Source: Octopus sinensis
Taxonomy: Eukaryota
NCBI RefSeq assembly: GCF_006345805.1
Contig: NW_021831833.1
Coordinates: 15,943-79,942 of the forward strand
Length of the DNA: 64,000 bases
Direction of reading: 5' to 3'
The notes below the pieces were generated by a model. The model was not told the DNA's origin. It saw only the letters and a program-made list of their open reading frames with translations, and did no database searches. This document shows, piece by piece, positions 5,757 through 40,474 of this stretch; positions within the stretch are counted from its first letter, which is position 1; each line of letters begins with the position of its first letter. Position numbers and translations under genes: made by a program.

Positions 5757-5834
<78 letters not shown>

Positions 5835-6165
5835 ATCAAGAACAATCTTTATTCTCCTTGTCCTGTCTTTTACTGTCCTGTTTTTGTTACCATTCTTACC
5901 CCTCCGCAAAAAGATCTCAAATTTTATTTAATTTGCTTTTCGCGGGAAGGAAAGTTTCTATCGAAGATGCGTATCGCCTTCACCTTCGAAACGCAGAGTA
6001 GATGGCGACTGAAGAAGGGGAATTGTCCTTGTTTTATTTGTCCTGTACTCTATTTTTTCGTTGTTTAAGAAAAATGTCCAGTTCCTTGGTTTTGTGTTTA
6101 TGTTTTCGTTTCTCATTGTGTTCGACGTTTTTTTTTTTTTGGTGTCCTGTACCCATATATGCATG
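5835..6165 (+). mobile_element. Short T-rich retroelement/PLE-like terminus, family P1, carrying permuted hammerhead-like motif
   Basis: 3' tail GTCCTGTACCCATATATGCAT is shared with 32550-32570 and, reverse-complemented, 40037-40057; flanked by (TA)/(TG) repeats. Confidence 0.6.
5957..6022 (+). ncRNA. Putative non-circularly permuted hammerhead ribozyme
   Basis: TGCG-TA | TCGCC | TTCACCT-TC-GAAA-CGCA | linker | GGCGA-CTGAAGA-AGGGGAA; all three stems complementary (one mismatch in stem II). Confidence 0.65.
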
Positions 6166-6231
6166 TATATATACATGTAGAGGTAGGTACGTACATATAT
6201 GTATGTATATATGCATATGTTTTATTTATTA

Positions 6232-6305
<74 letters not shown>

Positions 6306-8056: not shown

Positions 8057-8250
8057 GGGGACAACCAGATCGAACCATCTCAAGTGTAACTGTCCGAAAT
8101 GGTCGTGACTTCTGGTACTTGACTGAAGAAAGAAAGCCAAGAATGACCCGTCTTTTTTGCCTGTCCTAATTGCTGCTTCTCTTGTCCGCCTTTGTGTCGT
8201 GTTTCTGTCCGAACGTTTTAATATCCTCTATTGCGTTTTTGTTCCATATA
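8057..8250 (+). mobile_element. Short element, family P2, with permuted hammerhead-like motif (8065-8136)
   Basis: Homologous to 32587-32762 and 39715-39885 (GAATGACCCGTC, TTGTYCCAT tail); lies between (TA)n and (TG)n. Confidence 0.6.
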
Positions 8251-20935: not shown

Positions 20936-21549
20936 CGGCGGCGAGCTGGCAGAAACGTTAGCGCGCCGGGCGAAATGCTTAGCGGTATTTCGTCTGCCGC
21001 TACGTTCCGAGTTCAAATTCCACCGAGGTCGACTTTGCCTTTCATCCTTTCGGGGTCGATAAATTAAGTACCAGTTACGCACTGGGGTTGATGTAATCGA
21101 CTTAATCCGTTTGTCTATCCGTTTGTCCCCCCTCTGTGTTTAGCCCCTTGTGGGTAGTAAAGAAATAGATAGAAATAGGTATTTCGTCTGCGTTACGTTG
21201 TGAGTTAAAATTCCGCCGAGGTCGACTTTGCCTTTCATCCTTTCGGGGTCGATAAATTAAGTACCAGTTACGCACTGGGGTTGATGTAATCGACTTAATC
21301 CGTTTGTCTATCCTTGTTTGTCCCCTCTGTGTTTAGCCCCTTGTGGGTAGTAAAGAAATAGAAATAGGTATTTCGTCTGCGTTACGTTGTGAGTTAAAAT
21401 TCCGCCGAGGTCGACTTTGCCTTTCATCCTTTTGGGGGAACGATAAATAAAGCACCAGTTTCGCACTGGGGGTCGATGTAATTGACTTAATCCGTTTGTC
21501 TGTCCTTGTTTTCCCCTCTATGTTTAGCCCCTTGTGGGCAGTAAAGAAA
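20936..21549 (+). mobile_element. SINE family A, one head plus three tandem body units (periods 194 and 189 bp)
   Basis: GGTATTTCGTCTGC recurs at 20984, 21178 and 21367; each unit ends GTAAAGAAATA. Confidence 0.92.
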
Positions 21550-22015
21550 TATATATATATATACACAGATGTACCCATACCGAAACAAACATATCCACAC
21601 ACACAATTACTCTGTACATGTGATACCCGAGTCTTCGGTCGGCTCTTTTAACCCCAATAAACATACCAACTCTACCCAACGGGTGTATTGAGTGCTCATT
21701 TGAGCTATCGTTTCCCTCGCTCCATACTGGGAGTATTCAATACCTGTTAGTGTGTATTTGTGTTTCTCTGTGTGTGTACTCGTAATTTCAAGGTAATAAC
21801 TCTCATTCGTTGCTATCAAATTTAAAGTAACAAATAAGGGAGGTAAGTCATACAATATCGGCTGATGCAAAAGTTTTCACAATGCACTTTTGAAATGGAT
21901 GTTGTCTCTGTAACCAACAGCTGAAAGAAACTGACATGTTTCAATCTTTTTAGCTCTCCTTAACGAAGTATGTTCACTTAATTTGCTCATCGTTAATGGT
22001 CAATATGAATGCGTG

Positions 22016-32379: not shown

Positions 32380-32570
32380 CCTCATTATTGTGACACAGCA
32401 GTGAAAAGTATTGTCCGTGATTGCTCGAAATGTGGAGAGCGGACAACTGATGAAGGGTCATTCTTTGTATTACTTGTCCTTTTTTTCTGTCGTTATTTGC
32501 GTATTTAACTCATTTGTTTTCGTATCTTATGTTGTTTACTGCTGGTGATGTCCTGTACCTATATCTGCAT
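32380..32570 (+). mobile_element. Family P1 element with permuted hammerhead-like motif (32406-32460)
   Basis: GTA|TTGTCCG|TGATTGCTC-GAAA-TGT|GGAGAG|CGGACAA-CTGATGA-AGGGTCA; P1 tail GTCCTGTACCTATATCTGCAT. Confidence 0.6.
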
Positions 32571-32586
32571 ATATATATATATATAT

Positions 32587-32762
32587 AATCTCAAGATTAA
32601 TCACCCGAAATTGCGAGGATGATCTAGTTCTTGATTGAGGATAGAAAGCTTCGAATGACCCATCCTTTTTTTTTTTTCGTATCGTCTGTCTGGATGTTTT
32701 TTGGTCCCTTTTTGTATCACCTAGTTGTTCGGATGTTTTGCGTTCTTGTCCCATTTTGTATT
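32587..32762 (+). mobile_element. Family P2 element, 5'-truncated, in (TA)n
   Basis: AATC|TCAAGA|..GAAATTGC..TCTTGA-TTGAGGA; closely similar to 39746-39885. Confidence 0.65.
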
Positions 32763-39714: not shown

Positions 39715-39885
39715 TTAGCTTTTCCTTGGGGCTGGCCAGATCGGAGCAATCTCAAGATTAATCAGACGAAATTGCGAGGATGATCCGGTTCTTGACTGAA
39801 GATTAAAGGCTTTGAATGACCCGTCCGTGTTTTTTGTATCGTCTATCTGGATGTTTTGCGTTCTTGTCCCATTTTGTATTTTTTT
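39715..39885 (+). mobile_element. Family P2 element with permuted hammerhead-like motif (39736-39806)
   Basis: GCAA-TC|TCAAGA|TTAATCAGAC-GAAA-TTGC|..|TCTTGA-CTGAAGA-TTAA. Confidence 0.65.
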
Positions 39886-39991: not shown

Positions 39992-40036
<45 letters not shown>

Positions 40037-40041
<5 letters not shown>

Positions 40042-40285
40042 TATGTGGGCACAGGACGTTACGAAATGTATACAACAAAAAAAATATGAAGTTCGAGTAC
40101 ATGGAATATGAAATATGTTTTCGAAGAACGAAAGACACAAATGGAAAACAAGACAAATAACAAGAACGACCCCTCATCAATTGTTTGTTTTGTTTTCCAT
40201 ATGTGTCTTTCGTTGTTCGAAAAAATAGTCCATGTTCCATGTACTCGTACTTCTTTTTTTTGTTGCACACTTTGCACACATATGC
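40037..40285 (-). mobile_element. Family P1 element with an inverted copy of its own 3' part
   Basis: Arms about 40070-40157 and 40184-40268; minus strand CAAACAA-TTGATGA-GGGGTCG then P1 tail. Confidence 0.7.
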
Positions 40286-40474
40286 ATATACGTATACGTA
40301 TAGTTGTAAGTATGTACATATACTTATGTATAAAAAAATATCTATACATAGATCTACAGCTATCTGCGTCTAACTCTCTATTCATCTATATATCAATCGA
40401 TCTGTGTGTGTGTGTGCATATGTGTGCATGTATACATACATACATACATACATACATACATACATAATACATAC

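Follow-up and report, generated by a model that had tools for sequence, protein, structure and literature searches.

The core of a likely hammerhead ribozyme lies at positions 5899–6020, on the forward strand, of the 64-kb stretch of the Octopus sinensis genome that was analysed here (contig NW_021831833.1; hereafter the window). The genome measures 2.72 Gb, and the window is rich in microsatellites. The motif sits in a 5′-truncated copy of a non-coding repeat between two such microsatellites (about 5834–6235), as judged from the flanks and from 93% identity over 387 nt to the roughly 800-nt tandem unit of another locus (L025). A 16-nt inverted piece of the same unit opens the copy (5834–5849, matching at 16 of 16 positions). 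Where the repeat carrying this motif is arranged in tandem, the period is 789–838 nt at eight loci and 656 nt at one; each non-coding unit bears one ribozyme motif, and a reverse transcriptase (RT) or endonuclease frame is absent from the unit. The family further shows partial tandems, inverted 5′ pieces and (TA)n flanks. The motif is itself repeated, with 2,063 candidates in the genome, 40 of which were scored and found 90–100% identical, and copies of the family are about 90–95% alike. An earlier note on this DNA had singled out the copy as the best preserved candidate; it is indeed the most complete within the window, but it has lost 8 nt at the 3′ end of the linker between stem III and stem I, a linker that is full or near-full length in 48 of 50 family copies and as short as this in only two.

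All the elements of a hammerhead core (CUGAnGA, GAAA and an NUH site) are present in a non-circular, that is permuted, order, as the earlier note had proposed. The order of site, GAAA and CUGAnGA is that of type SGC in the Eckert scheme. The 5′ strand of stem III (5968–5972) comprises TGCG at 5968–5971 and T5972, which corresponds to U16.1, and pairs with 5991–5995; T5972 and A5973 form the TA of the site. A5973 corresponds to A17, and cleavage is predicted 3′ of it, in the context GUA, by analogy with the hammerhead core and in keeping with the 5′ ends of copies, which cluster just downstream. The 5′ strand of stem I follows (TCGCC, 5974–5978), with its partner GGCGA at 6004–6008. The segment 5988–5995 holds GAAA (5988–5991) and CGCA (5992–5995), the core GAAA followed by the 3′ strand of stem III, and 6004–6015 holds the 3′ strand of stem I followed by CTGAAGA (6009–6015, C3 to A9). 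The remaining segments listed in that note, TTCACCT at 5979–5985, TC at 5986–5987 and AGGGGAA at 6016–6022, were likewise found in place.

Comparative tests drew on 38 representatives, hand-picked after viewing and comprising 22 long-arm and 16 short-arm sequences, with L211, L217, L237, L241–L246, L251–L257 and the L214-type repeat left out as not fitting; as the representatives are related, the p values given below overstate independence. GAAA is invariant in all 38, which were selected on it, whereas selection on the cleavage site was not strict, and an NUH site is found in 34 of 38. When 22 representatives are aligned on sequence only, pairing reaches 95% in stem I and 91% in stem III, and nine of the ten pairs in these two stems have changed on both sides.

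Stem II departs from what was first drawn. The earlier note had paired AGGGGAA after CTGAAGA with TTCACCT, so that stem I ran straight into stem II′ with no linker, and had regarded another register as an inactive alternative. That alternative is in fact the same diagonal as the proposed stem II, which leaves T5986–C5987 unpaired next to G12; its proximal part is 75.5% paired, and its covariation is at shuffle level (129 of 500 shuffles). Instead, the strand before GAAA pairs with a strand 19–28 nt upstream of U16.1. In the window copy these are GAAGG (5946–5950, where G5946 is G10.1) and CCTTC (5983–5987, where C5987 is C11.1), and four nucleotides (5979–5982) intervene between stem I and this strand. 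Stem I and the linker to stem II together take up 8–12 nt in the 38 representatives. The upstream stem II scores at least 4.5 of 5 in 32 of the 38 hand-picked representatives, compared with none at the canonical downstream position, and a partner swap over 13 sequence classes gives p ~1e-5 upstream versus 0.40 downstream. Automatic clustering with no hand-picking (134 matches in 22 clusters) leads to the same preference: a score of at least 4 is reached upstream in 17 of 22 clusters and downstream in 3 of 22, with swap-test p values of 0.007 and 0.57, respectively. Under the upstream-stem model, 95.1% of cells are paired in the sequence-only alignment of the 22 long-arm sequences and 83.1% in that of the 16 short-arm sequences, four of which are misaligned at stem II; no shuffle out of 500 reaches the pairing of the model, and slid controls give 22–42%. 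Stem II formed with 5946–5950 is 99.1% paired in the long-arm set, with four of its five pairs changed on both sides, and the sister subfamilies L249 and L250 have swapped GCACC/GGTGC for GTGCC/GGCAC. The base at 10.1 is G in 36 of 37 representatives, and the G10.1–C11.1 pair, which opens stem II next to G12, occurs in 22 of 22 sequences of one alignment (A2).

Moving the 5′ strand of stem II upstream leaves a gap between A9 and G10.1, which is predicted to be filled by a four-way junction. The AGGGG that directly follows A9 (6016–6020) pairs with CCCCT at 5899–5903 as stem IV, a helix other than the one first proposed for it. Between this 5′ strand and G10.1 lies hairpin V (5904–5945), whose closing pair C5904–G5945 abuts stem IV on one side and G10.1 on the other, often leaving no unpaired base at the junction. 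Because hairpin V closes directly at G10.1, the base before G10.1 is G in 32 of 37 representatives. Stems IV and V both score at least 4 of 5 in 26 of 37 representatives, where shuffled upstream sequence gives a mean of 8.6 and a maximum of 15; the swap test for the two stems gives p 2e-5, and p 8e-4 over 19 classes. Short-arm families fit less well, and a script did not find stems IV and V in the one octopus Naiad-type representative. A closing helix between the bases after CUGAnGA and the 10–16 nt before G10.1 was unsupported (p 0.14 and p 0.42); these first tests failed because the stretch searched was too short, the true partner lying beyond hairpin V. The domain therefore spans 5899–6020, and the construct of the earlier note, 5945–6030, would omit two conserved helices.

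A further helix connects the outer parts of the domain. [quoted passage not shown] In the window copy the 5′ strand of P0 and the GAA side of an internal loop occupy 5954–5965, and the shortened linker at 5996–6003 supplies the AGTA side of that loop and three base pairs of P0; the 8-nt deletion at its 3′ end has removed the partner of 5954–5958. This GAA/AGUA loop, which we take to be a bulged-G motif, occurs in 13 of the 22 long-arm representatives and stands in the window family in place of a kink-turn. A kink-turn pattern, read as a loop between stem III and P0 with a 3-nt bulge followed by tandem G.A and A.G pairs, is found in 16 of 38 representatives (14 of the 16 short-arm and two long-arm), against a mean of 1.5 and a maximum of 7 after shuffling. 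Covariation thus shows stems I, II (with the upstream strand), III, IV and V as well as the extension of stem III.

If the RNA cleaves itself at the predicted site, copies made from the cleaved RNA should record it at their 5′ ends. The ends and (TA)n junctions were tallied among the matches listed, with boundaries read by eye. Seventy copies of the window superfamily were chosen on the GAAA–CUGAnGA part only; 14 start at +1 to +11 and five in the 40 nt before the cut (binomial p 2e-6, three internal deletions set aside). In a second family, 46 distinct (TA)n junctions fall at +1 to +13 in 37 cases, upstream in two and at +14 to +36 in seven; 30 junctions collected with another anchor divide into 20 at +1 to +6 and 10 spread over the 35 nt upstream. 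Most 5′-truncated copies thus begin 1–13 nt past the predicted cut, a distribution suggestive of cleavage in vivo; read most simply, it means that the cut was the starting point of many RNA templates. 3′ ends form no cluster at the site in the eight loci inspected. The 5′ ends peak 6–10 nt past the site and on AT-rich bases, a peak shaped by microhomology. This offset could also arise if a structure derived from a hammerhead, no longer catalytic, were bound by the RT or stalled it, so that stalling and microhomology produced the cluster. Such an account would accommodate the non-NUH site in 4 of the 38 representatives and the poor in vitro cleavage of hammerheads in Penelope-like elements (PLEs; PMC4209133). 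It leaves unexplained why U16.1 with the site (34 of 38) and G10.1–C11.1 (36 of 37) are kept across very different families although the representatives were not selected on them, and why other AT-rich positions, upstream and further downstream, take few 5′ ends; we consider it improbable. Site-specific self-cleavage is a prediction, and a likely one.

Whether the domain would act as a monomer depends on the geometry of P0. A kink-turn bends a helix to 50 degrees and binds proteins of the L7Ae family (Huang and Lilley 2016, PMC5061560), and in the short-arm families such a bend could return P0 to stems I and II in cis. Alternatively, the same helices might be formed by two molecules or by adjoining tandem units: the hairpin loop of one would dock on the flanking strands of its neighbour, and cutting would be restricted to dimers. 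Tandem units are common, PLE hammerheads have been proposed to act as dimers (PMC4209133), and a straight stem III extension, as expected where the kink-turn is missing, could not close in cis. The kink-turn that follows a 5-bp stem III in 14 of 16 short-arm representatives, together with fixed arm lengths, nevertheless fits a compact cis fold, and in the minimum-free-energy (MFE) fold of the window copy the entire domain is enclosed by stems IV and V. An obligate dimer seems to us similarly improbable, perhaps a shade more so.

Could the element be an ordinary type-SGC hammerhead after all, with stem II formed by the bases after CUGAnGA, one extra A, and the upstream pairings representing an off state? 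Long-arm families permit a 4-bp downstream helix of G–C and G.U pairs with some covariation; in the window family this wobble-rich stem is 78% paired (covariation 0.315, reached by 2 of 500 shuffles), and PLE hammerheads commonly leave a base unpaired ahead of stem II (PMC4209133). The downstream stem II is worth only –2.9 kcal/mol, however; no representative reaches 4.5 of 5 there, the partner is absent from the short-arm families and from four non-mollusc Naiads, and the bases after CUGAnGA covary with stem IV. We regard this version as very improbable.

The motif exceeds chance. A strict descriptor combining the site, stems I and III, GAAA and CUGAnGA, with stem II ignored, finds three matches in the window and none in 200 kb sampled at 20 evenly spaced places in the genome; 10 shuffles gave 0–2 (mean 0.5) per 264 kb. 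Genome-wide, two patterns in this order give 7,743 matches against 10 in controls and 13,417 against 392, while a third, looser pattern is mostly background (6,304 against 5,464); the matches split into many subfamilies with differing stems. Although the motifs are short and no family reached its gathering score in an Rfam scan of the window, these counts and the covariation, which already refutes it, leave a negligible probability for chance resemblance within a repeat.

The same fold recurs in Naiad elements. The last 200–600 nt of 27 published Naiad consensi (supplement of PMC8557442, named here by file order) were viewed by eye. The fold, with differing stems, ends six of them: Beroe, Clytia-3, Morbakka-2, Acropora millepora and two Octopus consensi, that is, one ctenophore, three cnidarians and two octopuses. 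The Euprymna end has the fold without a clear stem II, three ends (two nematodes and one spider) have CUGAnGA before GAAA, and nothing was seen in the viewed part of the remaining consensi. Craig et al. (2021) describe Naiads as lacking canonical hammerheads, with some ends flagged HHR_core or HHR_half_core (PMC8557442). One short motif from the octopus consensus published for Naiad is matched exactly at 249 places in the genome and at none in controls. RT-thumb-like remnants, recognised by likeness to the supplement sequences, precede the Naiad-type motif at 4 of 20 loci (L295, L296, L302 and L306).

Taken together, we interpret 5899–6020 as a likely self-cleaving hammerhead core in the order site–GAAA–CUGAnGA, opened at A9/G10.1 by a four-way junction, within a non-coding Penelope-type repeat that probably relies on copying in trans, and we assign this reading a probability of about 0.7. 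Stem II would stack on the A9–G12 pair and stem IV on stem V, while the extension of stem III would bend back so that its far end meets those of stems I and II and braces the core in cis. Transcripts through tandem units would be cut after NUH into unit-length RNAs with a 5′-OH end, which might then serve as templates for a Penelope-type RT, most likely related to that of Naiad, whose insertions go into (TA)n. Circles may also form, as in retrozymes (10.64898/2026.07.22.740005).

Several points weigh against this reading, beyond the relatedness of the representatives, the reading of boundaries by eye, the offset of the 5′ ends and the downstream helix of the window family. A competing helix in this family, which traps G8–A9, is by itself more stable than stem II with its upstream strand (–9.1 versus –7.3 kcal/mol). 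Microhomology with (TA)n could also act at the AT-rich spots where the 5′ ends lie, and the bend is not accounted for in the window family, which is without a kink-turn. No autonomous partner of the window family was found: a Neptune-type element followed by the family occurs in only 2 of 30 loci. Pfam gave no significant match on the RT-thumb-like remnants. Cephalopod Naiads are described as having died long ago (Craig et al., PMC8557442), whereas copies of the window family are, as noted, 90–95% alike. Eckert et al. (2023) worked on the assumption that CUGAnGA and the paired strands beside it form an unbreakable block, insertions never exceeding 1–2 nt (PMC10085705), and the known insertions in hammerhead cores are of 1–2 nt (PMC3088659). 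In the MFE fold of the window copy, stem I and C3–U4 are sequestered, and in a typical copy, L012, the nested MFE fold gives the stem II strand another partner and has no stem IV; these folds are weak evidence, since folding programs cannot fold pseudoknots. Among the hammerheads that have been solved or tested, we know of none that carries helices between A9 and G10.1.

The window copy is a poor choice for a first assay, although it is the most complete in the window. It keeps all core bases and stems I–V, and its MFE fold holds stems IV and V. The 8-nt deletion, by orphaning 5954–5958, leads the MFE fold to pair that region with the 3′ strand of stem I and with C3–U4. The copy is thus predicted to misfold and is probably slow or dead; that it cleaves at all is possible but doubtful.

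Further copies lie in the window. A second, short-arm and of the kink-turn class, is at 8059–8129 and is 5′-truncated at the stem II strand; a third, also short-arm and of the kink-turn class, is at 39730–39802. A decayed copy of a long-arm sister family lies at 32405–32458, like these two on the forward strand, and a further decayed short-arm copy, 5′-truncated 4 nt before the predicted cut, follows it directly at about 32587–32645. At 40000–40330 two 3′ parts of a related repeat lie in opposite orientations and show CUGAnGA in decayed form, and at 20984–21551 a 193-nt unit is repeated three times in tandem. This tandem unit is presumably a repeat resembling short interspersed nuclear elements (SINEs).

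Other structured sequences were met elsewhere in the genome. L217 and L241–L246 belong to a family that forms stem III and pairs stem II upstream over 7 bp but has no U at 16.1 and a differently arranged stem I, possibly a further variant; L211, L237 and L251–L254 belong to another structured repeat, with GAAA before CUGAAGA, outside the present fold. Short-RT PLE reading frames occur in L033, L157 and L214–L232, which we take to be Hydra-like, and the opposite strand of the L214-type repeat also matches the GAAA-then-CUGAnGA pattern without fitting the present fold. A Neptune-type PLE, with RT thumb, Cys-rich linker and GIY-YIG, ends in a minimal type I hammerhead-like motif about 220–260 nt past the endonuclease region (L262–L275), in which, by eye, A3–U8 apparently replaces C3–G8. 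This element was considered as the carrier of the window family and set aside as a coincidental neighbour, the family following it in just 2 of 30 loci, each time across a (TA)n break. Among the Naiad ends, the nematode and spider half-cores resemble type I motifs with a long insert in stem II, and the bivalve and hemichordate ends, which showed no hammerhead core in the part viewed, have another conserved-looking 3′ motif in common (PMC8557442, File S5).

With somewhat less confidence than for the core reading, we think it probable that the fold constitutes a seventh hammerhead topology, which would combine a non-circular order with a four-way junction in the catalytic strand and a kinked brace, be active as a monomer and be at least as old as the ctenophore–cnidarian–mollusc split. 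Part of the Naiad clade would then possess a ribozyme that has escaped notice, and so would more than 20,000 non-autonomous copies within a single genome, whose 5′ ends would bear a footprint of cleavage. Searches of open-access papers, some judged by title and opening of the abstract, found no description of this architecture in print. If correct, the proposal breaks the assumption behind the scheme of six hammerhead permutations, means that animal genomes hold non-circular permutations in very many copies and accounts for searches that found no hammerhead in many Naiad elements. Since copies record where the RNA template began, they would offer a direct test of the role of the ribozyme in Penelope-type retrotransposition. 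A core that tolerates two helices at A9/G10.1, combined with a protein-binding kink-turn, would also provide a new site for engineering ribozyme switches.

The proposed element shares features with several known systems. The window family resembles Naiad PLEs (PMC8557442) in targeting (TA)n, in its partial tandems and in the inverted pieces at 5′ ends, although these are not diagnostic of Naiad, because other PLE clades have them as well. Naiads encode an open reading frame with an N-terminal GIY-YIG and a C-terminal RT, whereas the window family is non-coding and RT-like remnants lie only beside the Naiad-type motif. The animal retrozymes without long terminal repeats (Li et al. 2026, 10.64898/2026.07.22.740005) likewise consist of non-coding tandem units (51–972 bp in their range) with one ribozyme per unit and are proposed PLE derivatives; they are defined by type I hammerheads, and in the present family the order is not CUGAnGA–GAAA–site, so that their descriptors would miss this fold. 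The minimal type I hammerheads of PLEs (Cervera and de la Peña 2014, PMC4209133) also have the core in the terminal repeat of PLEs and in many solitary truncated copies, and tolerate an unpaired base after A9. Theirs have a circular order and a tiny stem III, cleave weakly in vitro and are thought to need dimers, whereas the present fold is non-circular and has a full stem III. The kink-turn (PMC5061560) is matched in the stem III extension of the short-arm families and of the octopus Naiad motif and is absent from the family of the window copy.

The closest relatives are the type-SGC hammerheads, HRIMA-1 and its variants, whose cleavage was validated by Eckert et al. (2023) and which that work found only in metatranscriptomes (PMC10085705). 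Common to both are the order of elements, all core bases, three mutually crossing stems and a short link from stem I to the 3′ strand of stem II. The present fold is thus hammerhead-like with SGC order, but it lacks one defining SGC feature: the stem II strand does not lie within 1–2 nt of CUGAnGA, and block C is broken. In type SGC, stem II directly follows CUGAnGA, whereas here its strand comes from upstream and stems IV and V occupy the gap between A9 and G10.1. Theirs were reported from no genome of a known organism, while the element described here is genomic, highly repeated and equipped with a candidate brace in the extension of stem III.
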